Part shown: positions 10,580 to 62,082 of the stretch, piece by piece | How the letters are laid out: each line of letters begins with the position of its first letter | Numbering within the stretch: position 1 is the first letter of the stretch | IMG/VR virus record: IMGVR_UViG_3300042397_003635 | Source of the DNA: a virus | Lineage: Duplodnaviria > Caudoviricetes | Reading direction: 5' to 3' (one strand) | Length of the DNA: 64,000 nucleotides | Position numbers and translations under genes: made by a program | Notes under the pieces: model-generated | Seen by the model: the letters and a program-made list of their open reading frames with translations, nothing else | Databases searched by the model: none | Told to the model about the DNA's origin: nothing

Positions 10580-12067
10580 ATGATAGACTTTAAAGAAAAC
10601 ATCGAGTTGCTAGAAAAGGTTATTCTTAACTTTATTCTAATGGATGACAATAATGAGACCCTAATTAGGCCAAAGAACGTAGAGGCCCTTGATATTAGGG
10701 AAGTTATTCCAAAAATGAAAACTCAGTATTTCAATAACGATGATCTTGGAAATATCTTTAAAGTTGTAAAAAACTATTATAAAGAATATCATAAGATTCC
10801 ATCGAAAACTGAAATTCGAGAAATGCTTAACTTAACAAGTTATGAAATTTCAGATGACACTTTTAATACTCTACTTGGTGTAAATCTTGGAGAATACAAT
10901 TATGAGTTCTTAACCAAGTATACAAAATCATTTATCTTAATTAAGAACCTTAACTCATCAATTGTTGATATTTTATCTTTCTTAAAGACAAGTGAAATAA
11001 GTCCAGAAAATGTTAATATTATTACAGATCAGGTTAGAACTAAGCTTAATACAAACTTAAATGTTTCCTTTAGTAATGCTGAGTCTGGCTTAAATTTCTT
11101 TAATGCAGTCGATCACGTTCAGGTTTCTAAAACTGGAACTCCAACTGGGTTTCCATTTTTTGACAAGACATTAGGCGGAGGTTGGAACCCTAAAACTCTA
11201 GTTGTTTTCCAAGGTCGACCTAAGGTTGGTAAATCAATGGTTCTTTCAAATATTGCAGCTCGTGCATTTATGTCAGGCTGTCAAACTGGTGTTGCAACAC
11301 TGGAATTGGCTGATACTAAATATATGAAACGTTTAGGATCAAATATCTTAAATATTCCATATAATCAATATAATGAGATTACGTCAAAAGATCGTACTCA
11401 ATTAATTGAAGCTAAAATCGAACAATTTAAACAAAGCGGCTCTCAGCCTGGAGAATTATGGGTTAAAGAATTTGCAACAGGTAGTGCAACTGCAGTTGAT
11501 ATTGAAAATTACTTTTTAAAAGTTCAAGAAAGCACAGGAAAGCGTCTTCAAGTTGTAGTCGTAGATTATATTAACTTGATGAGACCTATGCGCGAGCAAG
11601 GAAATACTTATGAGAAAATCAAAGTAATTTCTGAGGAATTGCGTGCAGTAGCTCAACGTAATGAATGGACTATTATTACTGCGACTCAAATTAAACGTGA
11701 TGCAGTAGATGACCAAGATATTGGAATGTCAGATATTGCTGAATCCTTTGGTCTTGTGCACACAGTGGATTCTCTATATGGTCTAATGAGAGGGCCTATG
11801 GAAAAAAGAATTAAAATCAAGGTTATTGCTAACCGTGATGAAGGCTACACAGAAAGCTTTAAAATGTATCGAATGTTCTATGATTTCTCTAGACTTGTAG
11901 AAGAAACTGATCCAGCAAGCGAATACTACTCTGATGACGATGATATTTCTTCAATTGAAGACGATTTGCGTCAACAATATGCAAACGTCCAAGTTAAACC
12001 ACAATTGACAGTTGCTCCTAGTATCAAGCAGTTTGGTGAACATGAAGATATTTTAGGAGATTTATAA
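10580..12067 (+). CDS. gp41: Replicative DnaB-like helicase (gp41)
   Basis: TGFPFFDKTLGGG, Walker A GRPKVGKS, VVVDYINLM, TATQIKR, IAESFGL. Confidence 0.93.
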   Translation: MIDFKENIELLEKVILNFILMDDNNETLIRPKNVEALDIREVIPKMKTQYFNNDDLGNIFKVVKNYYKEYHKIPSKTEIREMLNLTSYEISDDTFNTLLGVNLGEYNYEFLTKYTKSFILIKNLNSSIVDILSFLKTSEISPENVNIITDQVRTKLNTNLNVSFSNAESGLNFFNAVDHVQVSKTGTPTGFPFFDKTLGGGWNPKTLVVFQGRPKVGKSMVLSNIAARAFMSGCQTGVATLELADTKYMKRLGSNILNIPYNQYNEITSKDRTQLIEAKIEQFKQSGSQPGELWVKEFATGSATAVDIENYFLKVQESTGKRLQVVVVDYINLMRPMREQGNTYEKIKVISEELRAVAQRNEWTIITATQIKRDAVDDQDIGMSDIAESFGLVHTVDSLYGLMRGPMEKRIKIKVIANRDEGYTESFKMYRMFYDFSRLVEETDPASEYYSDDDDISSIEDDLRQQYANVQVKPQLTVAPSIKQFGEHEDILGDL

Positions 12068-16041: not shown

Positions 16042-16926
16042 ATGCATACTTACAAAGGAACATCATTTGCGGAAGCTTACCAAAAGTCATTAATCGATTT
16101 AATGGACAATGGTGACTTATGCGAAACGCGAGGAACTACAAGCAGAGAATTATTAAATGTTTCTCTAGAAATCACTGATCCAAGTCAGTGTATGTATACC
16201 AATATGACTAGGTCTACCCAGACTAAATATATTGCAGCTGAATTTTTATGGTATTATGCTGGTCGTAATGATGTAGCATTTATTTCAAAATATGCAAAAT
16301 TTTGGGAGCAGATTCAAAATCCAAATGGTACCGCTAACTCTGCTTATGGTAACCTAATATTTAAACCAAAATCTCTTGGTGGAATTACTCAATACGAATG
16401 GGCAATTGCATCATTAGCAAAGGATAAAGATAGTAGACAAGCAATTCTTCACTTTAATACGCCAGAACATCAATATAATGGTAATAAAGATTTTGTTTGC
16501 ACAATGTATGGAATTTTTCATATTAGACACAATAAACTAAACTTTAGTGTCTATATGAGATCTAATGATGCTATTTGGGGTACACCAACTGATGTTGCAT
16601 TTTTCTGTTCTCTACAAATGCAGGCTCTTGCTCATCTTAAGGAATTTTATCCAGAATTAGAGTTAGGAACCTATACTCACCATGCAAACTCATATCATAT
16701 TTATGATAGACACTATGATCTAGTTAGTCGTATGTTAGTTGGAGAGTTCGTTCCATCTAGACTGCCTTCAATTAAAACTAATCTTGTTTCAATGTCAGGT
16801 CACCCTACACAAGAGTTTAATGACATTTTTGAATTTATTGAACATGATCAAGATGATATTTTAATACTACAAGAAAAAGAAGATCTATTAACTTGGATCG
16901 TAAATCAATTTGGCGATGATAACTAG
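16042..16926 (+). CDS. Thymidylate-synthase-fold enzyme, dCMP hydroxymethylase/methylase-like (T4 gp42-like)
   Basis: NSAYG, DSRQAI, DFVCT (catalytic Cys), RSNDAIWGTPTD with Asp at the TS Asn177-equivalent position, ANSYHIY. Confidence 0.78.
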   Translation: MHTYKGTSFAEAYQKSLIDLMDNGDLCETRGTTSRELLNVSLEITDPSQCMYTNMTRSTQTKYIAAEFLWYYAGRNDVAFISKYAKFWEQIQNPNGTANSAYGNLIFKPKSLGGITQYEWAIASLAKDKDSRQAILHFNTPEHQYNGNKDFVCTMYGIFHIRHNKLNFSVYMRSNDAIWGTPTDVAFFCSLQMQALAHLKEFYPELELGTYTHHANSYHIYDRHYDLVSRMLVGEFVPSRLPSIKTNLVSMSGHPTQEFNDIFEFIEHDQDDILILQEKEDLLTWIVNQFGDDN

Positions 16927-17362
16927 ATACGATATTGTATACATGAAAATGGCCTCAGAATGGGGACAATTATCGAATGCTCGTCGTAAAAAAGTTGGAG
17001 CGCTCCTAGTTAAGAATAACACTATTATAGCTGATGGTTATAATGGAACTCCATCTGGTTTTGAAAATGAATGCGAAAATCCTTTATTTGATGCAGATGG
17101 TAATTTTTTAGACTATGAAACAAAATGGTATGTTTTGCACGCCGAATCTAATGCTTTAGCTAAAGTTGCAAAATCTACTCAATCTTCTGAGGGTTCTACT
17201 CTTTATGTTACAATGTCTCCGTGTAGAGAGTGTAGCAAATTAATTCTTCAAGCAGGAATTAAAAGAGTAGTCTATTCGGAATCATACAGAGATTCTGCCG
17301 GTCTCGACCTCTTAAAAAAGGCAGGGGTTGATGTAGTTCAGATTCTACCCGAATCAGAATAA
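16916..17362 (+). CDS. dCMP deaminase
   Basis: KVGALLV, GYNGTPSG, HAESNAL, SPCRECSK zinc motifs. Confidence 0.93.
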   Translation: MITRYDIVYMKMASEWGQLSNARRKKVGALLVKNNTIIADGYNGTPSGFENECENPLFDADGNFLDYETKWYVLHAESNALAKVAKSTQSSEGSTLYVTMSPCRECSKLILQAGIKRVVYSESYRDSAGLDLLKKAGVDVVQILPESE

Positions 17363-21523: not shown

Positions 21524-23041
21524 TTATGCTAATTTAGCAAGAGAACCAGATGCCAATGAGAATTGAACATACTGAGTTCCAGGATGCCATCCAGCTTCAA
21601 CCAATGCATATCTTGACTTCATACCGATTTTCGGAGAGAAAGTACCCTCAGAAATAGTTTGAAGAGATTCTGCCATGATGTAAGGCATGAATTTAAGACC
21701 TGGCTCTTCGTCAGCACCTTTACGACCAATTAATACAGTCGCATCGTCAAACTTCAAGTTAGGATCAACGTATACGTTAAGACCGTAAACTTTACCAGCA
21801 GGGTACAATGTACCAGCAGCAGAACCTAAATCGTTGTTGAAAGGAGCAATTGAGTAACCAGCAGCATCAGCCATAGCAGATGCAACTTTAGCACCAACTA
21901 CTGCGAAAGTACCAGCACCAAAACGTGCTCTGTGGTAGATCAAGTTAGCAGATTCTAACATCTTGCTAGCAAGTCTTCTTTGAGCAGTTGTTACGTTTTC
22001 GAAACCACCAGTATAAGTAGCAGCAGATAAGTCTAATGTAGCAGAATAACCTTCAGCTGTTGCAGCTGCAGCAGCGTGAGTTGTTGCTAAATTCTTAACT
22101 TTAGAAACGATTTCTTTGTTGATTGTTTGAGCAAGCTCGTTAACAGCAACATTCTCTAACATAGAGATTGCGTCGAAATTCCAAACTCTGTTAAGATCTT
22201 GGATTTGCTCAACTGTTGCAGAGATAGAAACTTGAGAAGTTTTAGCCTCAACAAACTTAGTGAACATTTTAAGACCCATTTGACGGAATTTAGAAGTTTC
22301 ACCAGCACCTCTATTCATAGATTGAGTGTACTCTTGACCATCTAAGAAAGGACCATACCAAGCAGAAGCTTCAGCTGTACCTGCAGGAGCTGCAGTTGAA
22401 GTGAAACCAGAGATATGATTTTCTAAAGCAGATACTAATTCTACTTCAGCTTCTGAAACAGCAATACCTGCAGCAACCGCTTGAGCAGCAACTGAAGTAG
22501 AAGCGTCTGTACCAGAAATAACTTTGTAGATGTATTTTGCATCTAGACGAGATACACCAACATAAGCAAACTCTCTGTCACCAGTGTTATCTGGAGTTGT
22601 ATCAAGAGTTGCAGTTTTGATCAAATATGGTTCAAACTCACCAGTTACGTTACCACCTTGGTAAACATAATCTAAGTAAGGAAGGAAACCAACTGGAGAG
22701 TCCATAGGAACTACACCAACTAGGTCAAAACCAATAGTTTTTGCTGCTACTTGAATAGCAACTGGCAATAAACTTGGGAATTTATCACCTGAACCATTTG
22801 CACCAGTTGTTGGAGCTAATGGGTTACCGATTCCACTGATAGAACCTGGTTGTTGATAGAATAAACCTGGAGCAACAGCTGATTCGTTGATTGCACCTGC
22901 GTTTTCGAACATTGCGTGATAGTGGCAATAATCTACTAACCAAGGACGTGAATCTGCGTTTACACCATAGCTTTCTAAAACTGGAGCCCAAGTTGACTTA
23001 ACAGAGGCATCGTTTAGTCTTTTAAATACTTTTGTAGACAT
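21524..23041 (-). CDS. gp23: Major capsid protein (gp23-like)
   Basis: LLPVAIQVAAKTIGFDLVGVVPMDSPVG, ELAQTINKEI, GTFSPKIGMKSRYAL; probable maturation site INE/SA. Confidence 0.95.
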   Translation of the reverse strand: MSTKVFKRLNDASVKSTWAPVLESYGVNADSRPWLVDYCHYHAMFENAGAINESAVAPGLFYQQPGSISGIGNPLAPTTGANGSGDKFPSLLPVAIQVAAKTIGFDLVGVVPMDSPVGFLPYLDYVYQGGNVTGEFEPYLIKTATLDTTPDNTGDREFAYVGVSRLDAKYIYKVISGTDASTSVAAQAVAAGIAVSEAEVELVSALENHISGFTSTAAPAGTAEASAWYGPFLDGQEYTQSMNRGAGETSKFRQMGLKMFTKFVEAKTSQVSISATVEQIQDLNRVWNFDAISMLENVAVNELAQTINKEIVSKVKNLATTHAAAAATAEGYSATLDLSAATYTGGFENVTTAQRRLASKMLESANLIYHRARFGAGTFAVVGAKVASAMADAAGYSIAPFNNDLGSAAGTLYPAGKVYGLNVYVDPNLKFDDATVLIGRKGADEEPGLKFMPYIMAESLQTISEGTFSPKIGMKSRYALVEAGWHPGTQYVQFSLASGSLAKLA

Positions 23042-23058: not shown

Positions 23059-25092
23059 TTAGTTGTTTGCTCTTCTTTTTAGAGCGTCGAGGTATGCATT
23101 ACCATAACCTCTTTGATGTTCCGCAACTTTCTCAATCGAGATAAAACCTTCTCTACCTTGGCTTTCGTTGATGTGTTGCGCTGTTTTATTTTGTTTTTCG
23201 AAATAAATTCTTTCATTAACTCCTCTTAAATCTCTGCTCTCCCAGAAGTTTTTAACTTGGTAAGGAGTGTTAAGAACAGTTAAAGAAGCTTGAGCTTCTA
23301 AACGGCTCTTTTCTGCAGGAGTCATGCTTTCAAAAACTTCTTTGAATTTAGCAGGCATGAACTTAATTAAGTTTGGAGTATTTTCTTGTTGTTTGTTAAG
23401 AACTGATTCAATGATTTGGATAACGTCTTCTTCTTTGAAGTAAACTGCACCTGAAAGAGCTTCAATAATAGCAGTTTTTTGAGTTTGATCTAAATTAAAG
23501 AATCTTGATTTATTATCTTCGTTAAGAAGTTTTAAGAATGGATATCTGCTTTCTAATACAGATTTAGCAGAGTTATCTTTGATATGCTTAACAATTGAGT
23601 TAACTGAACTTACAATATCAGAAACATTAGAACCTTCAGAAACTTGATAGTTTACAGACTCATCTAATTTTTCGATTTGGCTAAATGCAGAGGCAGTTTT
23701 AGTAGAAAGACCTACTTTACCTTCATTTAATTCAGTTGCAATATACTCAGAATATTTAATTCCTCTTTCAAGGTTTTCAGCAAGATAGTTAGCGTAACCA
23801 ATAGAGTGCTTTAAGTTTTCAGCAACGTATTCAGTGTATCTGATACCTTGTTCTGATTTTTCAGCAACATACTCAGAATATTGAATTCCTTTATCAAGGT
23901 TTTCTGCTAAGTATTCTGTGTATTTAATATTTTTGTTTACGTTTTCAGCAATATGCTCAGAGTAATCAATTGCATTATTTAGGTTTTCTCCAACGTATTC
24001 AGCATAACCGATACCTTGTTCAACTTTTTCTGCAAGATAATCAGAATAATCAATTACTTTATTAACTTTCTCAGCAACGTGCTCAGAATAATTAATTGAT
24101 TTGTTCATCATTCCAGAAAGGTAATTGTTATATTCAATTACTTTGCTAAGCTCGCTTGAAAGATAGTTAACATACTCAACTAATTGTTCATTAGTTGCAG
24201 GTGTTTGTTCTTCATCTTGTTCAGCATTTGGATCTTCAACCACTGGAGCATCAGCAGGTTGGTCGTCTTCGGTAACTGCGAAGTTATCAACCATTTTATC
24301 TACACTTTCTTTAAGTGCGTCAAACTTGCCTTTAACAAGTTCAGAGTATTGGTTGAACGCTTCTTTCGTTACAAACTCATTAGTCATGTGTTTGTTATTA
24401 TTTTCCATAGTTTGTACTATCTCTTCATTATTTATCTTATAAACTTTGATTGATTCCTCGAGGTTTAAGCTTTCAGAAATATCAACCAATTTATTTACAA
24501 TTGACGTAGATTTAATATTTTCCAAAGATTCGAAAAGCATAGAGTAATTGCTTTGGAAGCTCTCGTTAACAGATCTTCTAAGAACAGCTTCACTGAAACC
24601 AGGTTCAGCTACTAGATCGTATGTGAATATTCTTTGGATTTTTACTTTACCTTCATTCATTACCTGACCAGCGGCTCTTGAAGAAGTTGAAATTGTACAG
24701 CCTGACTCAACTAGAGTTTTTGCAATCTGGCCAGCGGGAGTGTTAAGCAGACGTACTTTAATTTTTACGTTATTAGAATTTTGATCGTACCATAATTTCT
24801 CAACTACGTGAGAAACGTTTTTAAGTGAAACGTCAAAATTTTGAGGGTGGTCTAGCTCACCAAATAATTGACCTCTTTCGATTTTCTCGTTTAGGTATTC
24901 TAGGTGAGGAAGATACTCTGCTTTTTCGTAGATACGGTTGTTGTTATTCTTTGTGTCAAATACTGCACAAACACCTTCCATAACGATATCACCATTATCT
25001 AGTTTTGCTGAGTTTAAACCTTCATTTACTCTTTCTATAATGAAGAGCATATCTGAGGTTTTTGTAATTTCGTTTACGCCTGTAAGGACCAC
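23059..25092 (-). CDS. gp21: Prohead protease (gp21-like) fused to scaffold/core domain
   Basis: MEGVCAVFDTKNNNNRIY, GELDHP, VSHV, STSSRAAG, YDLVAEPGF protease motifs; C-terminal helical repeats; immediately upstream of the capsid gene. Confidence 0.9.
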   Translation of the reverse strand: MVLTGVNEITKTSDMLFIIERVNEGLNSAKLDNGDIVMEGVCAVFDTKNNNNRIYEKAEYLPHLEYLNEKIERGQLFGELDHPQNFDVSLKNVSHVVEKLWYDQNSNNVKIKVRLLNTPAGQIAKTLVESGCTISTSSRAAGQVMNEGKVKIQRIFTYDLVAEPGFSEAVLRRSVNESFQSNYSMLFESLENIKSTSIVNKLVDISESLNLEESIKVYKINNEEIVQTMENNNKHMTNEFVTKEAFNQYSELVKGKFDALKESVDKMVDNFAVTEDDQPADAPVVEDPNAEQDEEQTPATNEQLVEYVNYLSSELSKVIEYNNYLSGMMNKSINYSEHVAEKVNKVIDYSDYLAEKVEQGIGYAEYVGENLNNAIDYSEHIAENVNKNIKYTEYLAENLDKGIQYSEYVAEKSEQGIRYTEYVAENLKHSIGYANYLAENLERGIKYSEYIATELNEGKVGLSTKTASAFSQIEKLDESVNYQVSEGSNVSDIVSSVNSIVKHIKDNSAKSVLESRYPFLKLLNEDNKSRFFNLDQTQKTAIIEALSGAVYFKEEDVIQIIESVLNKQQENTPNLIKFMPAKFKEVFESMTPAEKSRLEAQASLTVLNTPYQVKNFWESRDLRGVNERIYFEKQNKTAQHINESQGREGFISIEKVAEHQRGYGNAYLDALKRRANN
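23719..24180 (-). repeat. Eleven tandem 14-aa repeats (I-x-Y-x-E-Y-[LVI]-A-E-x-x-x-x-x)
   Basis: VEYVNYLSSELSKV ... IKYTEYLAENLDKG / IQYSEYVAEKSEQG / IRYTEYVAENLKHS ... IKYSEYIATELNEG; 11 x 42 nt = 462 nt. Confidence 0.92.
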
Positions 25093-25162: not shown

Positions 25163-26026
25163 CTATTTAGTCTTATTTATTAGGCTTATTAGATCCAGCT
25201 TCTCAGAATCAGTTAGTTTATCGAAATTAGGAACCTTGGTGTGAATTTTAAAGATATAAGAACCTTTATTTTGTGTGCCAGTTGACATTCCTCTACCAGG
25301 AATAGTTATTCTAATGTCATTAAATGACTTAGCTTTGATTGACTTTATTTTAAAATTGGTTCCAGAAACTGAAGTAAAAATAAAATTTTCAATATTAATT
25401 AGTTCATCGAGACTTACTTCTCGATTATCAATAATATTACCTGATACATCAAGAGAAACTCCAGCGGGTAATACAATATCCAATAAAACATACAAATTGC
25501 CAATAAATGCACGGTTAAACATGCTTCCACCTCCAAGTTTTCCATGATTTCCCATATTTTGAAAGGTTAATCTGGAAAAGGCCTTATTGCCATCGAATAT
25601 TAATTGGTGTTTAGTTGTATCTGGGTTAAGATCAACACTAAATCTAATTGGAGAAGATTCTCCCTTTTTTGTGTAAGTAACCTCAATAGTTTTTCCAATT
25701 AACAAATCTTTAAGATCGATTTTTTGGTTAACAACAATGTCTAGATTAAGACCCCAGTTTTGAGTAAAAATATCTTCAGCAGCAAAGCCGCCAAACATGT
25801 CTCTAAGATCTTCAAAGGTTGATCCAGCTGATCCACCTCGATCGTAGTTTTTACGTTTTTCCGAATCTCCTAATACACCATAAGCCTCAGCGATTTCCTT
25901 AAATTTGGATTCGCCGTCTGGATTTTTATCAGGGTGATATTTTACAACAAGCTTTCGGTAAGCCTTTTTAATATCTTCCTGACTGCATCCACGCTCTACT
26001 TCTAGTATATTATAATAGTCTTTCAC
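25163..26026 (-). CDS. dnaJ: DnaJ-family co-chaperone (J domain, no zinc finger)
   Basis: [10 protein letters not shown]...KYHPDKNP...[11 protein letters not shown]; G/F-rich region; C-terminal domain with GRG and GSYIFKI. Confidence 0.9.
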
Positions 26027-32663: not shown

Positions 32664-33383
32664 TTATCCGTGGAATGGATCGAGATCTGGATTAGGAATC
32701 ATTTTCCAGCGTCTTTCTAGATTTGCACCTTGACCCCGTGCAAGTTGAATTTCTTGTGAATTGTGTTTAATTACCTCTAGTGCATTAATATAATCTCCAG
32801 CATCAACTAAATCTTGCACCATTTCGGCATCATCATCAGATAATAAGACTCTATAAACTACTGGATGACGCTGCTCATTAAAACGACAACGCATTATCAT
32901 CATGCTTAGTTGGCCATTGTATTCTTTCATTACACTTTTTCTAGTTGGAGCAGTTTCATCTGCTAAACCTAAATCGTGAATTCTGTCTAATTGATCTAAA
33001 TAGGTATGATCAATATTTTCTTTATTAAAAGACTCAATTCCATGACAATCTGCAATTCCAAAATACCAACTAGCAGATTCGGTTGATTCATTAATGAAAG
33101 AAGAAAATCGTAATACTTTATTTTCTGCAAGTGGTTCATTTGCATCAATAAGGTCTAAATCTGCATCACGAAGATCATAAATTTCGTCAAATGTTGTTTC
33201 TTCGAATTTAATTGGCTCTTCTAGATCAACCATGTATAAAGTTTGATCTGGAGCATAGTCTAATTTATAAACTTTTCCAATAGTTACAATTTTATTATCA
33301 ATTGGTGCGCCAACAAGATTAAGACGATCCATTGTGTCTTTGGATAATCTAAGTTTAACTCTATCTCCGATTTCGAATGCCAT
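32664..33383 (-). CDS. Hypothetical protein, putative head-internal protein
   Basis: Internal LAENKVLRFSSFINES, nearly identical to the motif in ORF 54688-55914. Confidence 0.75.
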   Translation of the reverse strand: MAFEIGDRVKLRLSKDTMDRLNLVGAPIDNKIVTIGKVYKLDYAPDQTLYMVDLEEPIKFEETTFDEIYDLRDADLDLIDANEPLAENKVLRFSSFINESTESASWYFGIADCHGIESFNKENIDHTYLDQLDRIHDLGLADETAPTRKSVMKEYNGQLSMMIMRCRFNEQRHPVVYRVLLSDDDAEMVQDLVDAGDYINALEVIKHNSQEIQLARGQGANLERRWKMIPNPDLDPFHG

Positions 33384-37545: not shown

Positions 37546-40440
37546 TTATTCTTGAGGAGCCGGTAAGAAAGAATCCATGTTAATATCGATTCCTAATAGA
37601 GAGTCTGAAGAAGTAGATTTAGTTCTAATATTATTAGCTTGCTCAACTTTAAAGTATTTAAGCTGATCGTCAGTTATCTTTCCATTGATTAAAACATAAT
37701 CTCCGGTATGCTTACTTACTGCCATAAAGTAGGTTCCATCTTGTAAGTATCGGTCAAATTCAATTTTCAAGACTCCATTTAGATAGGCCTGGTTTGTAAA
37801 TGTTCCGTCTTCAGCAATTGCATTATTAAATGTTGAAACCAATTCATCTTTATAGTTTTTATAAATTAGGTTAAATCCCGATGCTAAGATTTCAACAACC
37901 TCTGCTTTATTTGATGCCTGAACTGCGGCTGTAATTCCTTGGCTAAAATATTCCTTTCTTGGGTTAGCTGCAGCACTTGGTGCAAATGATGTAGAATTTT
38001 CAAGATATTCTGGAACTTCTTGTCCAGCTTCTGTAAATATGTCAGATAAACCTTTTCTAATATAGTTTCCAGCGTCAGCTCCCATACCGGTTCCGCTCTG
38101 TCCAGTTAATCTAAAATTATCTCCACTTGATTTAATTTCAATTGAATCACCTCCAACTTTAATATCTCCTTTAGTTTTATTATCCGCATTTACTGCATCT
38201 TTAACTAGGATAGACATCAAGATCTCTCCACGACCGATATTTACATTTCCAACTGATCCAATTAAATTGAATAATTGCTCATATAATTCTGGGCTAAGTC
38301 CTGTAGTATTAAATAGGGTTTTTAAATTTCCATTTGGGCTTGACGTAATATCTTCAAGCGTGATAGTTGGATTATCTAAATACGCTAATAGGTCATCGTC
38401 TTGGTCAAGCTCATCTGCGATTGTAACAATAGTTTTTGCTAAATCTTTATAACCCTTAGTTTTGCTAAGAATATCAAATAGATCTTTGGTTACATCATTG
38501 TGGGTTCTCTTTAAGAGTTTTTCAATCTTTTTATAGAGAGCTTCATTGTATGGAGCATCAATAATAAGATCCAATAGAGCAGTTTTCTTTTTATCCAACT
38601 CTTCAACTGAAATTGATTCAGTTAATAAAGACTCTTCAATTTCTTTACCCATATTATAGAATTCAGAATGAAGTGGTTTACTGGTTAAATTTTTGTATAG
38701 AACAAAATCTTGGTCTTTAACTGATTTAATTAAGTCGCTCTCTAATTCAATTTTAGGAACTTCAACCACTCTAAGCTGAGATGGAATCTTAGCGTATGGA
38801 GCCTTTTTATTAATTCGATTTAAATCTATTGATAAATCTGGAATAAAGTCTGGATTTGTTGCAATCGCCTTAATTGAATAACCTGGACCAACTGACTTTA
38901 TTAGTTCATCGATTCCAATTGAATCGACACTACCTCCCCCTACTACATAATCAGAGGTTTTAGAAAGTCTATCAATTGAACTTTTAACAGTATCGATTGA
39001 CATTGGAAAAACTGAACTTCTTTTTCCAGGGTGGTATGCTACCATTAAACAAGGAGAATCATATTTTCCTTTAATATTAGCAGCAATCTTTTCGTGCTCT
39101 TTACTTAGGGGTTGAAATTTATCTAGGTAAACAATTACCTCAACTTCTTTTTTTTTATTTTGGTCTGCTTGAAATTGACTGAAAAAATCAGTTGCATCCT
39201 CATCAGTTCCAAAAAATTGATTAAAGGTTGGGAAAAAAGATTCGTTTAACTTATCTTCTGCTGCCAATTGAACCTTAGATATTTGAGATTTTAGAGTTTC
39301 TTTCATAGTTTTATTAAAGAATGTTGAGCTAACTCTAATGTTCTTCTTTCTAAATGTATTTAGGAAAACTCTATAAAGTTCTTTGAGCGTTTTATCAGAA
39401 TCAATTAAATTAATAACAATATCATCATTAATTAATGATCGGTTAACGTCAAATTCAGGTTTATTTAAGAATTCTGGTGTTGTAATTTCAAGTCCACGAT
39501 ATTTGCTACCATGTTCCTGAACAAAATCTTTGAAAATTGCATTTATAATTTGAATGTATCTTCTTTCAAATGTTGTACCATTTGGTTTAATTGCATCAAG
39601 ATCCGCTTGTGAATAAGTCTCAATGAAATTCATTAAGTCAGCAGTCATGATCCAAATATAATCATCAGTTTTAGGTGCTTCAACTCTAGCCTGAGCCTTT
39701 TCCTTTGCTCTTGCTTGGAATACTGGGTCTACTAATTTTGCTAAAAATACAGAGTCTTCTCCATTTGGCTCATAAAATCTAAATACAATACCTTCAATAT
39801 CTTTGTCTGCACTATCTCTTAAAAATGAAGTTTTAAGTTCAGGGTTTAGGACATTAATAATGTATTTAGTAAATGACGCAGTTTTAAACTTTCCAACCAG
39901 TTCATCAAGAGGAGTATAGACAAAGTCTAAAATCTTTTCCTTTTGATCTTCGGTTAGCTTTCCTTGAAAAATAATTGGTGGGCGTTCAATATCTAAAATA
40001 TCTGCCCATTTGTCTAAATCTTCTTTATCTTGAATAGTCTCCGCTTGTTCGCCTGCCTCATCCAATATATGAATATAACTTAGGATTAGGTGATTCTTAG
40101 GAAGTCTATCATATTGGATTGACTGTGCAGTTGGAGAACTAAAATACTCCATTCCAAAATGATAATTACATGGAAGCTTTTCGATTACCTCTGACGATAA
40201 CTCATCAAAGTGCTTAAGTGCAGGATTATAGTATGAACTTAGGACACGATCTACTCCAGTTAATTTAGTATTACGTTTAAAAAATTCAAAAGGTTCTTCA
40301 GAATTTCCACAGTTTCTTTGAGCACCAAAGAAGGCACCGTCCATTTTTTCATTAACGATAACTTCTTTGTTTAATAGAGCTTCTAAGAATTCTTTGCCCT
40401 TTTTTTCGTAAATATCTTTTAAGTGGTTTAAACCTGCCAT
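37546..40440 (-). CDS. Multidomain protein: RNA-ligase-like nucleotidyltransferase + degenerate HIGH-type NTase + PD-(D/E)xK nuclease-like domain
   Basis: Ligase motifs EKMDG (I), FKRN (Ia), GMEY (III), EGIVFR (IV), AKLVDPVF (V); VYLDKFQPLSKEHEK; GRGE...KGDIKVGGDSIEIKS; linkers LNESFFPTFNQFF and LLTES. Confidence 0.75.
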   Translation of the reverse strand: MAGLNHLKDIYEKKGKEFLEALLNKEVIVNEKMDGAFFGAQRNCGNSEEPFEFFKRNTKLTGVDRVLSSYYNPALKHFDELSSEVIEKLPCNYHFGMEYFSSPTAQSIQYDRLPKNHLILSYIHILDEAGEQAETIQDKEDLDKWADILDIERPPIIFQGKLTEDQKEKILDFVYTPLDELVGKFKTASFTKYIINVLNPELKTSFLRDSADKDIEGIVFRFYEPNGEDSVFLAKLVDPVFQARAKEKAQARVEAPKTDDYIWIMTADLMNFIETYSQADLDAIKPNGTTFERRYIQIINAIFKDFVQEHGSKYRGLEITTPEFLNKPEFDVNRSLINDDIVINLIDSDKTLKELYRVFLNTFRKKNIRVSSTFFNKTMKETLKSQISKVQLAAEDKLNESFFPTFNQFFGTDEDATDFFSQFQADQNKKKEVEVIVYLDKFQPLSKEHEKIAANIKGKYDSPCLMVAYHPGKRSSVFPMSIDTVKSSIDRLSKTSDYVVGGGSVDSIGIDELIKSVGPGYSIKAIATNPDFIPDLSIDLNRINKKAPYAKIPSQLRVVEVPKIELESDLIKSVKDQDFVLYKNLTSKPLHSEFYNMGKEIEESLLTESISVEELDKKKTALLDLIIDAPYNEALYKKIEKLLKRTHNDVTKDLFDILSKTKGYKDLAKTIVTIADELDQDDDLLAYLDNPTITLEDITSSPNGNLKTLFNTTGLSPELYEQLFNLIGSVGNVNIGRGEILMSILVKDAVNADNKTKGDIKVGGDSIEIKSSGDNFRLTGQSGTGMGADAGNYIRKGLSDIFTEAGQEVPEYLENSTSFAPSAAANPRKEYFSQGITAAVQASNKAEVVEILASGFNLIYKNYKDELVSTFNNAIAEDGTFTNQAYLNGVLKIEFDRYLQDGTYFMAVSKHTGDYVLINGKITDDQLKYFKVEQANNIRTKSTSSDSLLGIDINMDSFLPAPQE

Positions 40441-40459: not shown

Positions 40460-40960
40460 TTAGTCTAGTGATCCGTGTTTACCAGCTGACATGTCTTTTG
40501 CAAACTCTTGTCCAGCTTTAGATGAAACTCCAAGGTTAATACCTTTTAGTAAGCCAGCATCTTCTGGGTTTTCTTCAAAATAGGTAACTAATTGATCTAA
40601 GTTAATATTTTGATATGGTTGGATAGTTCCCTCAGGAAGTTTCTTTTCTAATTCTCTACCAGAAGAATAGTCTTTCCAGTTAAGATTCCAACAGTAAAAT
40701 TTAACTTCTTGCTTCATTTTTGATGCAAAATAGTGATCAATATCTGCAAGTCTTGCCTGAACCTCTGAAAGATCTGTTTTGTATGAAGTAGAGTGTCCAT
40801 AGATATCAGCCGGGGTTCCGATACTTAAGCTATCTGAAGTTAAATCTGTTAATTTAACCAATTTGTCCATTAGCTCCTGAAATGGTATGCCTTTAAGATC
40901 TTGAGTATCTTCTGCTTCATTTAAGAATTGCTTGAAGTCTCCAATTACGCGATTTGTCAT
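40460..40960 (-). CDS. Hypothetical protein with N-terminal CTS-like motif
   Basis: Starts MTNRVIGDFKQFLNEAE; late promoter upstream. Confidence 0.78.
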   Translation of the reverse strand: MTNRVIGDFKQFLNEAEDTQDLKGIPFQELMDKLVKLTDLTSDSLSIGTPADIYGHSTSYKTDLSEVQARLADIDHYFASKMKQEVKFYCWNLNWKDYSSGRELEKKLPEGTIQPYQNINLDQLVTYFEENPEDAGLLKGINLGVSSKAGQEFAKDMSAGKHGSLD

Positions 40961-40981: not shown

Positions 40982-41581
40982 TTATTTATCCCGAACTAGT
41001 TTTTGGATTAAATCGCAGAACTCATCAACTGATTCTGAATCAAAATTATTTGTGAATGTATTAAATGAATTACCTAATCGACCTTCTTTAAATGTCCATG
41101 GAGCAGATTGAATTAAATTATGCATAATTCTTTTTTCTTCACTCGGTGAAATTAAGCCATCCCATAGGTCTTTTTGACGAGATTGGTCTTGTTTAAATTG
41201 ATCGGGTGCATCAATCATAATAGTTTTACAGTCTTGATAGCCAGGACGATTAATTAGACCAGCCAGCTCAGATTGAGCTTCATCAAAGGTTATTCGATTC
41301 CATAAAGTAGCCCAGGTGGCAGCTGTAATATGAGCTCGGTCAAATACAAAAATCTTTTCTGGAAATTGCTTATGTAGATCTAGGATTGTCATAATATTAC
41401 CCATGCTAAAGTAGTGGATTCCTTTATCGGACTTATCCCAATCTTTAACGATTGCAGAGTATTCGTTTGCTAGGTAAAATTTATAATAAAATAGGTTTAG
41501 ATCAACACCATGTCTTTCAATTAATTGGTTTAGCAAATAGGTTTTGCCTGAATGACGTGTGCCTTCAATAAAAATTATCAT
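40982..41581 (-). CDS. P-loop nucleoside monophosphate kinase-like protein (dNMP/thymidylate kinase family)
   Basis: IFIEGTRHSGKT Walker A; FVFDRAHIT DR motif. Confidence 0.75.
   Translation of the reverse strand: MIIFIEGTRHSGKTYLLNQLIERHGVDLNLFYYKFYLANEYSAIVKDWDKSDKGIHYFSMGNIMTILDLHKQFPEKIFVFDRAHITAATWATLWNRITFDEAQSELAGLINRPGYQDCKTIMIDAPDQFKQDQSRQKDLWDGLISPSEEKRIMHNLIQSAPWTFKEGRLGNSFNTFTNNFDSESVDEFCDLIQKLVRDK
40983..40989 (-). promoter_or_regulatory. Putative late promoter ATAAATA
   Basis: GATAAATAAT overlapping the kinase stop, about 23 nt upstream of 40960. Confidence 0.6.
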
Positions 41582-42108
41582 GAGTATTTAAGTTGTATTC
41601 TTTCTCTAGTTAATATACCAATATTTCCATTGATTTGAAGTAGTTCAGTCTTATCAACAAACCAATATTCAATCTTTTCAGTGACTTTAGAAAGATATGG
41701 ATTTTTGACATACTTATCGATTTGAACCAATGAGTCTTCGAATATTCGAATTGTATCAAAGTTTGGTCCAACCTTATCTAAGTACTCTAATAACATCTGT
41801 GGCTTGTCAGTATTTCTTTCACATAGGATAATTTGATCAAATCTTTTACTAATACCAAACTTATCCAATACAGCTTCCATGGCCTTTCTAGTTTTCTCAA
41901 CTCGGTGACTTAATATAATAGTAGTATGGTCTTCAGATAATTGGTTAAATACTGAGTCAATTAACTGTAATCGATAGAGATTTGTATTCAGGGACTTTGG
42001 ATTATCAAACCATTCGTATGGCTTTTTAAATTCTGTTCCTGCATGGGTAAATGGCGGAACTCTAAAGAGGGTTTCATCAAAATCGACTACGTTTAAAACT
42101 TGCTTCAT
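41578..42108 (-). CDS. HAD-superfamily phosphatase (RNA-repair / PNK-phosphatase-like)
   Basis: VVDFDETLF (DxDxT), ILSHR, K in DKP, IFEDS; ATG at 42108. Confidence 0.78.
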   Translation of the reverse strand: MKQVLNVVDFDETLFRVPPFTHAGTEFKKPYEWFDNPKSLNTNLYRLQLIDSVFNQLSEDHTTIILSHRVEKTRKAMEAVLDKFGISKRFDQIILCERNTDKPQMLLEYLDKVGPNFDTIRIFEDSLVQIDKYVKNPYLSKVTEKIEYWFVDKTELLQINGNIGILTRERIQLKYS

Positions 42109-42145
42109 ATGAAATAAATAACTTTGAAATAATATTATACTAAAA

Positions 42146-42607
42146 TTGAACTTAGAGTTTATCAAAGGAGAGTACGAGGGTAATAGAGTTAATCTGGTTA
42201 GGGAAACTATTCAGAGAAAGCAGCCCTTTGTCATCTTTACTTTTAGTAATCCAAAGATTTATCGTCAAGTTTTAACAGATTTATCCAAATTTGGTGCACT
42301 TCCATATGTTCGTCAGACATTTATTCCAAATGTTCAAATGGGCGGCTATCCTATAATATACCCAAGTATTTTTGTAACAAACGTCGGATCTGATGTAAAA
42401 GACGGAGAATTTAAACAAATGATGCTTGGCAGCTTAAAACAATATCACATTGATTCTATTATTTGTCTCTATGCTGGACAGCTTAGTTCATATTATAAAA
42501 ATGGAGATACCCATTCAATTGGAACTGACATTTATACAACATTGGATCCACGTGAATTTGAAAGCTATTACTTTAAATTGGAGAGTACTTGTTATACCTT
42601 TGTCTAA
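42146..42607 (+). CDS. Hypothetical protein (153 aa)
   Basis: TTG-start ORF divergent from the HAD gene. Confidence 0.65.
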   Translation: MNLEFIKGEYEGNRVNLVRETIQRKQPFVIFTFSNPKIYRQVLTDLSKFGALPYVRQTFIPNVQMGGYPIIYPSIFVTNVGSDVKDGEFKQMMLGSLKQYHIDSIICLYAGQLSSYYKNGDTHSIGTDIYTTLDPREFESYYFKLESTCYTFV

Positions 42608-54687: not shown

Positions 54688-55914
54688 TTAGTTAAGTGCT
54701 TTTCCTATTCGGGTTGCACCAAGTTGATATTCTTCTGGAGTAATACCCATGGCAGCTGCCTGATCTTCAACTGATAGCGATAATAATTTATCTTGATTTT
54801 GGCTAGTCCAATTTGCAACGATTGCTGCAATTTGTTCAGGTGTTTTTGAGTTATCTGACTCATTTACATCAGAGTTTTCCATTTCCATTAACCCGTTTCT
54901 ATAACAACCGATTGCTTCTGCAACGTATTCATTGTATTCGATTGGAGTTTGATCATTATGGATTTCTAATGCTTCGCTACAAAGTTTTTCACAAACTTCT
55001 TTAATCATTTCGCAAGTTGATTCATAGCAGGCAGATTCGTTATTCCAGCCTTCATTAATTGTCATGCCGTCATCCACCATTTCGTACATACACTTTTCCA
55101 TATAAGCGCAAGCTTCATTAAGATAGCCTTCAAATTGATGTTCTGGATCTGAATCTGCTTCATACATTGAAGCATCTGAATAAGTTGATTCGCATATAGA
55201 TTCAATTAGGTGGTGTGCAGCTTCAGATAACATAGACTTACTTCCATCATGGCAAGTATGACCTTCATTATATGATTTAGATGAACCAAATTCTTCTGGA
55301 TTTTCTCCATCGCCTTCTTCATCCCAATATTCAGCTTCACAGTGTTCTCCACAATCAGAGCAAATATCGCCCATCATAACTGAAGCACCGCAGCAGTTTG
55401 AGGTTGCACCATATTCATAAGCATCGCTTGGATCCCATGATTCATTTGCTTTAGCATGTATTTTAGCTGAATCATATACAGTTTTTAGCCATGATTCCAA
55501 TTCTTTGTTATCGCCAGCGTCTAAATTACTGTATTCCTTTTTGAAAGCTCTAACAAAACTCTTAAAGGTTTTAGATTCCTGTGCCAATAAGTCAATGTCA
55601 GACATTGCACTCTCTTTAATTGCAGCAGGTTTTTTCTTTTTAATAGCGTCAGTTTTAAATGCTTTATAATCTTCAAAGTCATTGTCACCGTCTCCGTCCT
55701 TATCGTACTTTGGATTATATTTTTTCTTTTCATTTATGAATTGCGTAAATCTTAGAACTTTATTTTCAGCGATAGCTGGTTCTTGATCACAAGTTTCGCA
55801 ATCTTCTGTAACCTGAGGGTTACGGCCAGTTTCATTATCAAACTGTTCGTCCTCTGAGTAGTAATTTGGCTTCTTTAGGAAAGCAGGTAAGTCTTTATTA
55901 GAAAATTTTCCCAT
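54688..55914 (-). CDS. Modular acidic Cys-rich protein with CTS-like motif, EF-hand-like loop and many xNE sites
   Basis: IAENKVLRFTQFINEK; DKDGDGDNDFED; SNCCG...ICSDCGEHC; duplicated module of about 48 aa. Confidence 0.78.
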   Translation of the reverse strand: MGKFSNKDLPAFLKKPNYYSEDEQFDNETGRNPQVTEDCETCDQEPAIAENKVLRFTQFINEKKKYNPKYDKDGDGDNDFEDYKAFKTDAIKKKKPAAIKESAMSDIDLLAQESKTFKSFVRAFKKEYSNLDAGDNKELESWLKTVYDSAKIHAKANESWDPSDAYEYGATSNCCGASVMMGDICSDCGEHCEAEYWDEEGDGENPEEFGSSKSYNEGHTCHDGSKSMLSEAAHHLIESICESTYSDASMYEADSDPEHQFEGYLNEACAYMEKCMYEMVDDGMTINEGWNNESACYESTCEMIKEVCEKLCSEALEIHNDQTPIEYNEYVAEAIGCYRNGLMEMENSDVNESDNSKTPEQIAAIVANWTSQNQDKLLSLSVEDQAAAMGITPEEYQLGATRIGKALN

Positions 55915-55935: not shown

Positions 55936-55942
55936 TATTTAT
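55936..55942 (-). promoter_or_regulatory. Putative late promoter ATAAATA
   Basis: GATAAATAAC overlapping the clpC stop, about 22 nt before 55914. Confidence 0.6.
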
Positions 55943-57930
55943 CTAGATCGGTCCTCTATACTTGACTCTTTTAGTCCATTGCCGTCTTCTGAGATAGTAA
56001 TATTGACATGGCCGTTATCTTTTAGCTTAGCATCAATCCAAAGTTCAGCTAGAAGGTCCTCAACGTGATTTTGGACCATTCGTTTAATTGGACGTGCTCC
56101 ATATTTCTCATCATAGCCGTGTTCAATAATAAAATCTTTAGCAAGTTGATCTAATTCAAAGGTGTAACCATTTTCTAGTGATCGTGCAAGCAAATCTTTA
56201 AGTTCAATTTCTAAAATTTGACCTATTTCGGCTTTTTCTAGTGAATCAAAGATAATAATATCATCTACTCGATTCAAGAACTCAGGTTGGAACTTATTTT
56301 TAAGGGCTTTATCTAAAATGCTCTTAGCCAGGGCCTTTTCCTTTTCAATATTGTTGGCAGTTGCAAATCCAATACCAACTCCGCGATCCTGCATGTCTTT
56401 TACTCCAACATTTGAAGTCATAATAACAACAGTATTTCTAAAATTGATTTTTCGGCCTCTTCCATCAACTGCATAACCCTCATCTAAGATTTGGAGCAAA
56501 TTATTAAAGATATCTGGATGGGCCTTTTCAATTTCGTCTAATAAAACTACTGAATATGGTTTTCTACGAACTTTTTCAGTTAATTGACCGCCTTCTTCGT
56601 ATCCCACATAGCCTGGAGGCGCTCCCATCATTTTAGAAGCTGTAAATTTTTCTCCATATTCATTCATATCAACTCTGATAATATTTTCTTCAGAATCAAA
56701 CATTTCTTTTGCTAAGGCTTTAGCCAATTCAGTTTTTCCAACTCCAGTTGGACCTAAAAACATAAAAGTTCCAATTGGTTTTTTACGAGAAGCAATATTT
56801 GCACGACTTCTCTTAATAGCTCTAGATAATTTTTTAATTGCCTCAGCTTGACCAATAACGCGCTTACTTAAATCTGATTCTAACGCTGCAATTTTTTCAA
56901 GATCGGTTTGCGTTAGCTTTGCTACTGGAATTCCAGTTATTTCGGCAACTACCTCAGCAATTTTGCGGTCATCTACTTCAAGTCGATTGTCTTTTAGCGT
57001 TTTTTCCCACTCAACTTTAGCTTCATCAATTTTAACTAATTGATCACGCTCAGCATCTCTTAATTTAGCAGCGGCTTCGTATTTTTGAGATTCAACTGCG
57101 CTTCTTTTATTTTTTGAAATTTCACCAAGCTCTTCTTCAAGCTCTCTAATTTTTTGAGGAACAACTATTCCATCGATATGGACATTAGCTCCAGCTTCAT
57201 CTAATAAGTCAATTGCTTTATCTGGAAAAAATCTTTCAGTTAAGTATCGATCTGCTAATTTTACACATGAGTCTAATGCAGATGCGCTATACGTAACTGA
57301 GTGGTGACTTTCGTAGTATTCTTTAATATTTTCAAGAATTTGACGAGTTTGTTCTGGGGTAGACTGTTCAACTACTACTTGTTGAAAACGTCTATTAAGT
57401 GCACCATCCTTTTCAATAGACTCTCTGTATTCATCAATTGTAGTGGCTCCAATACATTGAATTTCTCCACGAGCCAATGCCGGTTTTAGGATATTCGCAG
57501 CGTCTAGTGATCCACTAGCTGAACCTGCTCCAACCATAGTATGAATTTCATCAATGAATAGGATAATGTTTGGATTGGCACTTACTTCATTAATAATAGC
57601 CTCCATTCGCTCTTCAAACTGCCCTCTGTATTTAGTTCCAGCAACAAGGCTACTAATTTCAAGTGCAATAATTTTCTTGTCAAATAGAACCCTTGGGCAA
57701 GTTTTATCAATAATCATTTTTGCAATGCCTTCAACGATTGCAGTTTTACCAACTCCAGGTTCTCCAATTAAAATAGGATTATTCTTTTTTCGTCTAGATA
57801 AGATTTGGCTACAACGCTTAACTTCAGCAAGGCGGCCAATTACTGGATCCATTCTTCCTTCAAGCGCAAGTTGAGTAAGGTCCTTTCCGAAATTATCTAG
57901 GACTGGTGTTCGTGTGTCTCTTTTTGACAT
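55939..57930 (-). CDS. clpC: ClpC-like double AAA+ unfoldase lacking the N-terminal Clp repeat domain
   Basis: GEPGVGKT, FIDEIH, UVR-type middle domain (QKYEAAAKLRDAE), GPTGVGKT, LLDEIEKAH, GIGF ClpP-docking loop. Confidence 0.92.
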   Translation of the reverse strand: MSKRDTRTPVLDNFGKDLTQLALEGRMDPVIGRLAEVKRCSQILSRRKKNNPILIGEPGVGKTAIVEGIAKMIIDKTCPRVLFDKKIIALEISSLVAGTKYRGQFEERMEAIINEVSANPNIILFIDEIHTMVGAGSASGSLDAANILKPALARGEIQCIGATTIDEYRESIEKDGALNRRFQQVVVEQSTPEQTRQILENIKEYYESHHSVTYSASALDSCVKLADRYLTERFFPDKAIDLLDEAGANVHIDGIVVPQKIRELEEELGEISKNKRSAVESQKYEAAAKLRDAERDQLVKIDEAKVEWEKTLKDNRLEVDDRKIAEVVAEITGIPVAKLTQTDLEKIAALESDLSKRVIGQAEAIKKLSRAIKRSRANIASRKKPIGTFMFLGPTGVGKTELAKALAKEMFDSEENIIRVDMNEYGEKFTASKMMGAPPGYVGYEEGGQLTEKVRRKPYSVVLLDEIEKAHPDIFNNLLQILDEGYAVDGRGRKINFRNTVVIMTSNVGVKDMQDRGVGIGFATANNIEKEKALAKSILDKALKNKFQPEFLNRVDDIIIFDSLEKAEIGQILEIELKDLLARSLENGYTFELDQLAKDFIIEHGYDEKYGARPIKRMVQNHVEDLLAELWIDAKLKDNGHVNITISEDGNGLKESSIEDRSR

Positions 57931-60891: not shown

Positions 60892-62082
60892 TTAATTACT
60901 TAGTGGTGCTTTAATTGAAGGATGTGATTTATAATTCTCTACTTTAAACGTAAAATCAGTATCAAACGTATTAATAATCTCATCTACTTCTAATAGGTGC
61001 CAATTTTTATTTCCAGAATTTATTACTAGCTTAGGTAATACATAAGGCTCTCTCTCGGCTATTCTGGGCACTCCCCATTGATCTATTTCTGAATGAGATA
61101 AGGTACTAGGGTCTCCACCAGTATAGATCTCATTGAACATCTCTTGAGTAACCATTGCTCTACGCTCGTCTAAACTGTATCGATGTCCAATCTGTTCTTG
61201 CGCTTGCTCTAGGTGATTTAAGTAAAGGTGAGTATCTCCTAAATTTCCAACTAACTGATCAGGTACCATATTAACCATCTTTGCAATAATTTCAAGTAAT
61301 AAACCATACGAAGCAATATTGAAAGGTAAACCTAAAAAAGTATCAACTGAACGCTGATTCCACATTAGGGAAACTGCTCTCTTTGGAGTTGAGTCTTTAG
61401 CAATTTCTTCAACAATATAGAGATTCTCTAATTCAACATCTGTATTTTTTAGAACCCATTGAACTTGTTCTTCCCATGTTAATTCTCTCGTATACATTTG
61501 AAATCCATAATGACAAGGTGGAAGAACCATATTATCAATTTCACCAACATTCCAAGCATTAACCATTAGTCGTCTTGAATCAGGATTTGTTTTAAGGTCG
61601 TTGATTAGGTTTTGGATTTGGTCTATATACTTAATACTTTCAGTATCTTCCCATTCAATCCCCCATCTTCTCCATTGCTTACCATAAATTGGTCCTAATT
61701 CGCCAAATTCTTTTGCAAAAGCATCATCAGTTTTAATGCGCTCAACGAAAGCTGGCATCTCCATTGGAATATAATATTTCGAATGAACTTTTGATAATTG
61801 ATTCACATAGTTTTTATATGCATCTCCATTCCAAATATTACAGCCATTTTGAACTAGGAATTGAATATTTGTATCTCCTCTTAGGAACCAAATTAGCTCA
61901 GTGACCATGGTTTTCCAAGCCATTTTCTTAGTAGTTAAGAGAGGAAATCCATCCTTCATATTATGACGAACCGTATAACCAAAAATAGATTTGGTTCCAG
62001 TTCCAGTTCGATCACCTTTGACAATTCCATGTTCTAAAATTGTTTTAAGCAGATCTTGATATTGAGTGTCTAAGTTATTCAT
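60892..62082 (-). CDS. thyA: Thymidylate synthase (canonical ThyA, with insertions)
   Basis: DRTGTGT, FPLLTTKK, LGPIYGKQWR, LPPCH, QRSVDTFLGLPFNIASY, GDTHLYLNH. Confidence 0.96.
   Translation of the reverse strand: MNNLDTQYQDLLKTILEHGIVKGDRTGTGTKSIFGYTVRHNMKDGFPLLTTKKMAWKTMVTELIWFLRGDTNIQFLVQNGCNIWNGDAYKNYVNQLSKVHSKYYIPMEMPAFVERIKTDDAFAKEFGELGPIYGKQWRRWGIEWEDTESIKYIDQIQNLINDLKTNPDSRRLMVNAWNVGEIDNMVLPPCHYGFQMYTRELTWEEQVQWVLKNTDVELENLYIVEEIAKDSTPKRAVSLMWNQRSVDTFLGLPFNIASYGLLLEIIAKMVNMVPDQLVGNLGDTHLYLNHLEQAQEQIGHRYSLDERRAMVTQEMFNEIYTGGDPSTLSHSEIDQWGVPRIAEREPYVLPKLVINSGNKNWHLLEVDEIINTFDTDFTFKVENYKSHPSIKAPLSN

Follow-up and report, generated by a model that had tools for sequence, protein, structure and literature searches.

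The virus record IMGVR_UViG_3300042397_003635 of IMG/VR (Duplodnaviria; Caudoviricetes) gave us a stretch of 64,000 nucleotides of DNA, here called the window, in which an open reading frame (ORF) at 37546..40440 on the minus strand encodes the protein that we call P0001. The frame is open throughout, with 964 codons, and starts with ATG; because the N termini of homologues begin alike, reading M-[APS]-G-[LI], this start is supported. The gene sits in a minus-strand block from 17.8 to 42.2 kb, alongside head genes, baseplate/tail genes and genes whose products carry a tag resembling the capsid-targeting sequence of phage T4. A preliminary description of this DNA had portrayed P0001 as a polyprotein in which an RNA ligase, a degraded nucleotidyltransferase-like domain and a nuclease are separated by prohead-protease sites and loaded by a single tag; every motif that it quoted was found where it had been placed. 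PHROGs has no family for P0001, and a PDB sequence search with it gave no useful match.

The full-length AlphaFold2 model, built on 42 homologues, has a mean predicted local distance difference test score (pLDDT) of 76. Both interdomain segments, residues 398-431 and 606-611, score below 50, as do otherwise only the chain ends and five intradomain loops of 4-10 residues. In this model P0001, the apparent product of a large freshwater relative of T4, is a chain of three folded modules and two flexible linkers. The domain borders proposed earlier therefore fit the model, with well-predicted blocks on either side of both proposed linkers. For the middle domain, originally given as residues 401-608, the HIGH-fold assignment stands and the boundaries do not, the folded part being residues 432-605.

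Module 1 (residues 1-397) is, as judged by fold and motifs, an ATP-dependent, nick-sealing RNA ligase of the Rnl2 type. Its nucleotidyltransferase domain (residues 1-240; 39721..40440, minus strand) matches the Pfam family PF09414 (RNA_ligase) with 33.8 bits against a cutoff of 27, over residues 25-236 and profile positions 1-170 of 171. The all-helical C-terminal domain (residues 241-397; 39250..39720, minus strand) is delimited by the secondary structure of the model and by the span of a Foldseek match to full-length T4 RNA ligase 2. That structure, 2HVQ, is the top solved match to the module (E 8e-8, 383 columns), and the RNA-editing ligase REL1, fungal Trl1 and T4 Rnl1 rank lower. The Pfam match above threshold and the structural match to T4 Rnl2 together uphold the earlier assignment of residues 1-400 to an RNA ligase.

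The ligase motifs are readily located. Motif I is EKMDG at residues 31-35, with K32 as its lysine, and is followed by FKRN at 54-57; motif III is GMEY at 96-99 (E98), motif IV is EGIVFR at 216-221 (E216-R221), and motif V is AKLVDPVF at 234-241, with one lysine, K235 (LAKLVDP). Across the 42 homologues K32, E98, V219, F220, R221 and K235 are invariant, and D34, G35, E216 and G217 are conserved in 90% or more. The catalytic lysine is in place, motifs I, III and IV are complete, and the ligase is probably active. P0001 and T4 Rnl2 (gp24.1, PDB 2HVQ/2HVR, PF09414) have in common a nucleotidyltransferase domain with KxDG and motifs III and IV, and an all-helical C-terminal domain; they differ in that identity is only 13-14% and that the predicted ligase of P0001 is fused to two more modules and has a single motif V lysine.

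Module 2 has, according to its model, the HIGH nucleotidyltransferase fold. The folded domain (residues 432-605; 38626..39147, minus strand) finds NadD, PPAT, NMNAT and NadM in Foldseek, with E values of 2e-4 to 2e-3 and template-modelling scores by target of 0.34-0.62, mostly 0.5-0.6. The Rossmann-like HIGH fold is what it shares with the NMN/NaMN adenylyltransferases and PPAT (NadM, NadD, CoaD; PF01467). Unlike them, module 2 taken alone has no Pfam match and lacks both active-site motifs. In place of (H/T)xGH, which homologues have as HxGH or TxGH, P0001 reads S446-K-E-H449, within the variant DKFQPLSKEH (residues 440-449; 39094-39123); in place of the second motif, ISxTxxR, it reads ELESDLIK, where distant members have TSATEVR. 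The motifs are lost stepwise across the family. In the most distant members both GRFQPFHxGH and TSATEVR are present, and these members match NMNAT/NadM models, sharing GRFQPFHxGH and SATxVR with archaeal NMNAT/NadM; an intermediate clade keeps HxGH and has lost the second motif; and the P0001 clade has DKFQPLSKEH and no second motif. The fold match, the motif replacement relative to homologues and the missing Pfam match all agree with the original picture of a HIGH fold with a degraded motif.

Because both nucleotide-binding motifs are replaced in the P0001 clade, module 2 is probably a binding or adaptor domain rather than an adenylyltransferase, although the non-catalytic reading is uncertain. 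The alternative is that it is still catalytic with altered chemistry and provides the ligase with a nucleotide cofactor, or recycles one, NAD+ and an adenylylated intermediate being examples. The variant D-x-F-Q-P-h-[ST]-x-E-H (h, hydrophobic) recurs in three other lineages that are 19-26% identical to P0001 in module 2 and is therefore a conserved variant rather than random decay; this points to selection and, together with the intact motifs of the distant members, speaks for retained catalysis. Nevertheless, a glutamate replaces the glycine of HxGH and SxTxxR is absent in the P0001 clade, and these changes, with the lack of a Pfam match, make a catalytic module 2 quite improbable.

Module 3 (residues 612-964; 37549..38607, minus strand) comprises an N-terminal helical bundle and a core that is, in the model, a restriction-endonuclease-like PD-(D/E)xK nuclease with a complete catalytic signature. 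The signature, G736-x-G738-E739 ... D759 ... E768-x-K770, lies at nucleotides 38131-38235, with GRGE at residues 736-739 and GDIKVGGDSIEIK at residues 758-770. Across 26 homologues, 12-88% identical, invariance is confined to G736, G738, E739, D759, E768 and K770. In a separate model of the module (pLDDT 85; predicted template-modelling score 0.77) the core runs, in domain numbering (add 608 for the full-length protein), from a helix at 131-137 through strands at 141-143, 152-154 and 157-163 to a helix at 179-196. E739 lies on a helix, D759 starts the second strand, and E768-x-K770 lies on the third strand, after which comes a helix. The PD-(D/E)xK pattern that had been read in residues 609-964 is thus matched both by invariance in divergent homologues and by an alpha-beta-beta-beta-alpha core.

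The E...D...ExK signature and this core are shared with type II PD-(D/E)xK restriction endonucleases such as HinP1I (PDB 1YNM) and HincII, the latter ranking below HinP1I as a match; module 3 differs from them in its extra N-terminal helical bundle. A language-model Atlas gave R.HinP1I as the nearest annotated cluster (score 0.82), which we treat as a lead only. Confident matches among AlphaFold DB clusters (E 4e-9 to 6e-4) were solely to uncharacterised stand-alone proteins, a PDB sequence search with the module 3 profile gave nothing useful, and a word-index search with the module alone returned only gene fragments from P0001's own family. None of the neighbouring genes covered by the scan was recognised as coding for a partner methyltransferase.

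The prohead protease of T4, gp21, cleaves after L/I-x-E (PMC9026906), and both linkers of P0001 carry sites of this type. Linker 1 (residues 398-431; 39148..39249, minus strand) opens with LNE/S (residues 398-401; 39238-39249; the slash marks the predicted cut), continues with the tag-like FFPTFNQFF (residues 402-410; 39211-39237) and then becomes acidic; LNE/SFFPTFNQFF as a whole covers residues 398-410, and the codon of E400 ends at 39241. Linker 2 (residues 601-611; 38608..38640, minus strand), in which pLDDT is below 50 at 606-611, reads IEES LLTE/S IS and so offers two adjacent h-x-E-S sites, in IEESLLTES at residues 601-609, with the codon of E608 at 38617-38619.

P0001 has four [ILVM]xE[SAGN] sites, at residues 126, 398, 601 and 606, and only two columns of the whole 42-sequence alignment hold a conserved site of this form, those of E400 (41/42) and E608 (35/42). 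As residues, E400 is invariant and E608 is at least 90% conserved. At the linker 1 site, L, I, V or M always occupies the third position ahead of the cut, and S, A, N or G directly follows it. Because three of the four sites lie in or beside linkers and E400 and E608 mark the only two conserved site columns, their placement is, on the evidence of the alignment, more than chance. The proposal of protease-type sites at both domain borders is in this respect supported, if circumstantially: they are conserved, and they lie in disordered linkers.

A candidate enzyme is encoded on the same DNA. The window contains, as had been anticipated, a prohead protease, here fused to a scaffold-like region in a protein of 677 residues (23059..25092, minus strand) that matches Pfam Peptidase_S77, the gp21 family, with E 7e-12. 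It also contains a gp23-type major capsid protein (21524..23041, minus strand; Pfam Gp23, E 2.5e-47, core from residue 89), with AINE/SAV at residues 51-54, about 35 residues ahead of the Gp23 core. Both proteins are rich in h-x-E-[SAGN] sites, with 22 against 5.4 expected in the protease-scaffold protein and 9 against 2.0 in the capsid protein. The scaffold-like region (about residues 320-460) includes several tandem 14-residue repeats, 7 of them matched by a regular expression, of the form I-x-Y-x-E-Y-[LV]-A-E-[KN]..., each ending in a protease-type site. Among all proteins of the window the narrower pattern [ILVM]NE[SA] occurs 13 times, as against 2.7 +/- 1.7 in shuffles, an excess of about 5-fold; the occurrences include residues 51-54 of the capsid protein, two sites in the protease protein and residue 398 of P0001.

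In the family at large, linker 1 also resembles a targeting sequence. In the ten-residue capsid-targeting sequence of T4, residues 4 and 7 serve targeting and residues 8 and 10 processing (PMC9026906). Most homologues of P0001 read h-x-E/[SNG]-x-F-P-[ST]-F-x-E-F-V-G-E in linker 1, and the spacing of this consensus (aromatic residues at i and i+3, a hydrophobic residue at i+4 and Glu at i+6) equals that of the stretch Y-[ST]-E-Y-[LV]-A-E in the scaffold repeats and of T4 tag positions 4, 7, 8 and 10. Distant members have one or two aromatic tag-like motifs within the same linker. The strict motif [FYW]xx[FYW][ILV]xE is present in 29% of linker-1 windows and in 2.1% of other windows, frequencies that come from related and hence non-independent sequences.

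The wider family bears on how the modules relate to one another. It comes from large uncultured phages related to T4 and, with representatives taken at 50% identity, numbers 439 at an E-value limit of 0.001 and 152 at one of 1e-30. Members lie on metagenomic contigs of up to about 400 kb, and P0001 itself, in exact form, on contigs of up to 262 kb. Among the members listed, about half have two modules (about 640 residues, ligase plus nucleotidyltransferase-like domain), and the rest have module 3 or some other C-terminal addition. At locus L004, the gene directly downstream of the two-module member P0082, overlapping it by 17 nucleotides, encodes a stand-alone homologue of module 3, P0292 (hhalign 99.8%, E 7e-29). 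The same partners are therefore fused in P0001 and adjacent genes in a relative, which argues that the modules work together. Another member, P0111 (863 residues), joins the ligase and nucleotidyltransferase-like modules to a homologue (45% identity, E 1e-55) of a tagged 177-residue protein of L004, the gene for which (11058-11591) stands two genes downstream of the ligase gene and right after that for the stand-alone nuclease. In P0111 the fused homologue occupies residues 641-863 and retains both the tag and a V-N-E/G site, which are now internal.

At locus L006 (LR756500.1, from a 462-kb uncultured phage), a 421-residue ORF at 1704-2969 lies directly upstream of the ligase-nucleotidyltransferase gene. 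It starts with a tag (MKFLKSYEEFLNE/N) and has a KLDG ligase-type motif of its own, and therefore appears to be a second, tagged ligase-like gene paired with a family member.

The family of ligase, HIGH-fold domain and restriction-like nuclease is unannotated, and we found no description of it in the searchable literature. In deposited phage genomes blastn gave no match to the gene, and no cultured phage there has the protein; tblastn against the same genomes matched only six uncultured huge phages, and in these the ligase part alone. Nor did a literature search turn up any cultured phage reported to have a P0001-type protein in its virion proteome.

From the observed folds, motifs, conservation and position of the sites, type of protease and split-gene relative, we infer, as our preferred reading, a model in which P0001 would be drawn into the prohead core and cut there by the gp21-type protease after E400 and E608; the ligase, the nucleotidyltransferase-like domain and the nuclease would be freed as separate proteins and would accompany the DNA out of the head at infection. 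The inferred part of this model comprises prohead entry, cleavage and injection, together with every enzymatic activity and substrate. Taken as a whole chain, namely that cooperating sealing and cutting enzymes with a degenerate nucleotide-binding adaptor are processed by the head protease and therefore injected as cargo, we judge it close to an even call, if slightly on the doubtful side. That P0001 is a natural head enzyme polyprotein, loaded by an internal T4-like targeting motif, cut by the gp21-type protease at two linker sites and injected as freed enzymes, is a tentative view that we would sooner bet against than for.

The closest known cargo consists of the internal proteins IPI-III and Alt of T4 (PMC9026906). 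Each of the two phages encodes a protease of the gp21 family and a capsid protein of the gp23 family, and in both the sites are hydrophobic-x-Glu followed by a small residue, with an aromatic i/i+3 tag motif. The difference is that T4 tags are N-terminal, one for each protein, whereas in P0001 the sites and the tag-like motif, as read from sequence alone, are internal and lie between enzyme modules.

The main rival to injected cargo is that P0001 stays in the cytoplasm, uncleaved, as a multi-domain enzyme of nucleic-acid repair or processing in which trimming or cutting would fall to the nuclease, sealing to the ligase, and binding of a nucleotide or a partner to the nucleotidyltransferase-fold domain. 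The motifs in the linkers would then be ordinary linker features or binding motifs for something other than the head protease. We regard this as a serious contender whose chances nonetheless fall somewhat below even. It has a precedent in the Rnl2-HNH nuclease fusions of jumbo phages, described as a cytoplasmic repair-plus-attack enzyme by Iyer et al. 2021 (PMC7824862, section 3.4.9). Like P0001, these fusions combine an Rnl2-family ligase and a nuclease in one polypeptide of a large phage. They differ in that their nuclease is HNH and N-terminal, while that of P0001 is PD-(D/E)xK and C-terminal, and in that P0001 adds the HIGH-fold domain and the protease-type linkers; its architecture is absent from that jumbo-phage survey (PMC7824862). 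The P0001 family is in this sense a variant of already known kinds, the Rnl2-type ligase fusions and the T4-type head cargo.

Several observations weigh against delivery by the head, and some of them speak directly for a cytoplasmic enzyme. The fused and split forms reveal cooperation of the modules only. At L004 gp32 and a UvsW-like helicase are encoded in the same direction as the family member, which thus keeps company with replication and recombination genes, and the stand-alone nuclease P0292 has no tag at its start. Three two-module members end without any site. P0001 itself has no N-terminal targeting sequence, its N terminus being part of the ligase fold, and its copy of the linker 1 tag is degenerate, reading FNQFFGT against the consensus F-x-E-F-V-G-E and lacking the hydrophobic-x-Glu end. 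The suggestion of a single tag serving three domains gains no support from these last two points.

Other reservations concern the sites, gene expression and the enzymes. The h-x-E-S motif is short and acidic flexible linkers are common, and P0001 is not enriched overall in sites, having 4 against 4.0 expected from shuffling. The T4-type late-promoter octamer TATAAATA is likewise not enriched in the window (3 against 9.8 expected); of its copies one precedes the protease gene and none the P0001 gene. Parts of the P0001 gene appear in metatranscriptome contigs of four studies on fresh water or estuaries, in one case with 99% identity; these contigs attest only to its presence in RNA libraries, where DNA carry-over is possible, and do not reveal level, strand or timing. 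As for the enzymes, motif V of P0001 has the single lysine K235, whereas that of T4 Rnl2 is K-x-K. HinP1I is the first Foldseek match to module 3 and the best VIA-align match covering its alpha/beta core, and in both searches the match is weak (E 0.36 in the former; Z 4.2 over 121 residues, at rank 48, in the latter).

A cytoplasmic, uncleaved enzyme nevertheless leaves three things unexplained. Of about 1000 aligned columns just two hold a conserved h-x-E-[SAGN] site, and both fall in disordered linkers; an aromatic motif like that of the T4 capsid-targeting sequence is kept in linker 1 over deep divergence; and the fused neighbour in P0111 keeps its tag internally.

The genes upstream of the P0001 gene bear on tags and on the possible purpose of the ligase. 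Nineteen nucleotides away is a gene for a protein of 166 residues (40460..40960, minus strand) with the tag-like N terminus IGDFKQFLNE/A. At L002 and L005, too, the ligase gene is directly preceded by a gene that starts with a tag (MKNLKGF..F..E and similar), and at L004 the tagged genes are two and three genes upstream. Tag motifs occur elsewhere in the window too. A 408-residue protein without a Pfam family (54688-55914, minus strand) has 10 h-x-E-[SAGN] sites against 2.3 expected, with VLRFTQFINE/K at residues 56-68, and a 239-residue ORF at 32664-33383 has the near-identical VLRFSSFINE/S at residues 93-105; these are either internal tags or signs of start codons called too far upstream.

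Beyond the 166-residue protein come a P-loop kinase gene (40982-41581, minus strand), deoxynucleoside-kinase-like in a profile search, and a gene for a HAD phosphatase with DxDxT (41578-42165, minus strand). The preliminary description had suggested that the ligase reseals tRNAs cut by anticodon-nuclease defences. In the fullest form of this idea the locus would be a tRNA-repair cassette of the T4 Pnkp/Rnl type, with phosphatase and kinase healing the cut tRNAs and the ligase sealing them. The HAD gene does match phrog_415, 'polynucleotide kinase', at E 4e-6 and carries DxDxT, and the P-loop gene is syntenic with the ligase gene at L002 and L005. Against this, the P-loop profile finds deoxynucleoside kinases (E 4e-7) but none of the T4 Pnkp structures in PDB, and the sole NCBIfam match of the HAD gene is a weak one to pyrimidine 5'-nucleotidase. 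Moreover, Rnl2-type ligases seal nicks in duplexes and are not known to seal anticodon loops. The tRNA-repair rationale is weakened accordingly, and we consider such a cassette unlikely.

We had also entertained the two upstream genes as a split Pnkp. This idea was dropped because the kinase profile matches deoxynucleoside kinases rather than T4 Pnkp, and the HAD protein is weakly nucleotidase-like. By their profiles, the neighbouring genes look like nucleotide metabolism and not like Pnkp.

The window contains two genes of the thymidylate-synthase family, at 16042-17362 (plus strand) and 60892-62082 (minus strand), one canonical (E 4e-86) and one divergent (E 3e-24), and the divergent gene lies directly upstream of a dCMP deaminase gene. 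The divergent protein could be a pyrimidine hydroxymethylase, a possibility that bears on whether the phage DNA is modified. As pure speculation, module 3 might cut unmodified host DNA while modified cytosine protected that of the phage.

Three further genes of the window deserve mention. A tail-sheath-like protein of 1070 residues (2797-6009, minus strand), of which Pfam recognises no more than the C-terminal sheath domain, carries 8 protease-type sites where 3.6 would be expected, one of them PAVNE/S at residue 596. Between the protease and baseplate genes, 25163-26026 (minus strand) encodes a full DnaJ-type co-chaperone, with a J domain (E 4e-26) and a DnaJ C-terminal domain, and 55939-57930 (minus strand) encodes a ClpB-like double AAA+ protein.

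The model of P0001 as a head-protease substrate makes one sharp key prediction: fragments starting at S401 and S609. The split-gene and fused forms, for their part, provide a clean handle on which activities cooperate. If the model is right, the phage would bring finished sealing and cutting activities into the cell, ahead of the translation of any of its own genes, and the arrangement would account for the unrelated enzymes strung together in such phages. Should the linkers prove to be genuine protease sites, capsid targeting of the T4 type would reach beyond a few small internal proteins, and large uncultured phages would deliver multi-enzyme chains. Such chains would constitute an additional class of injected effectors, and the many tagged genes in these genomes might thereby be easier to explain.

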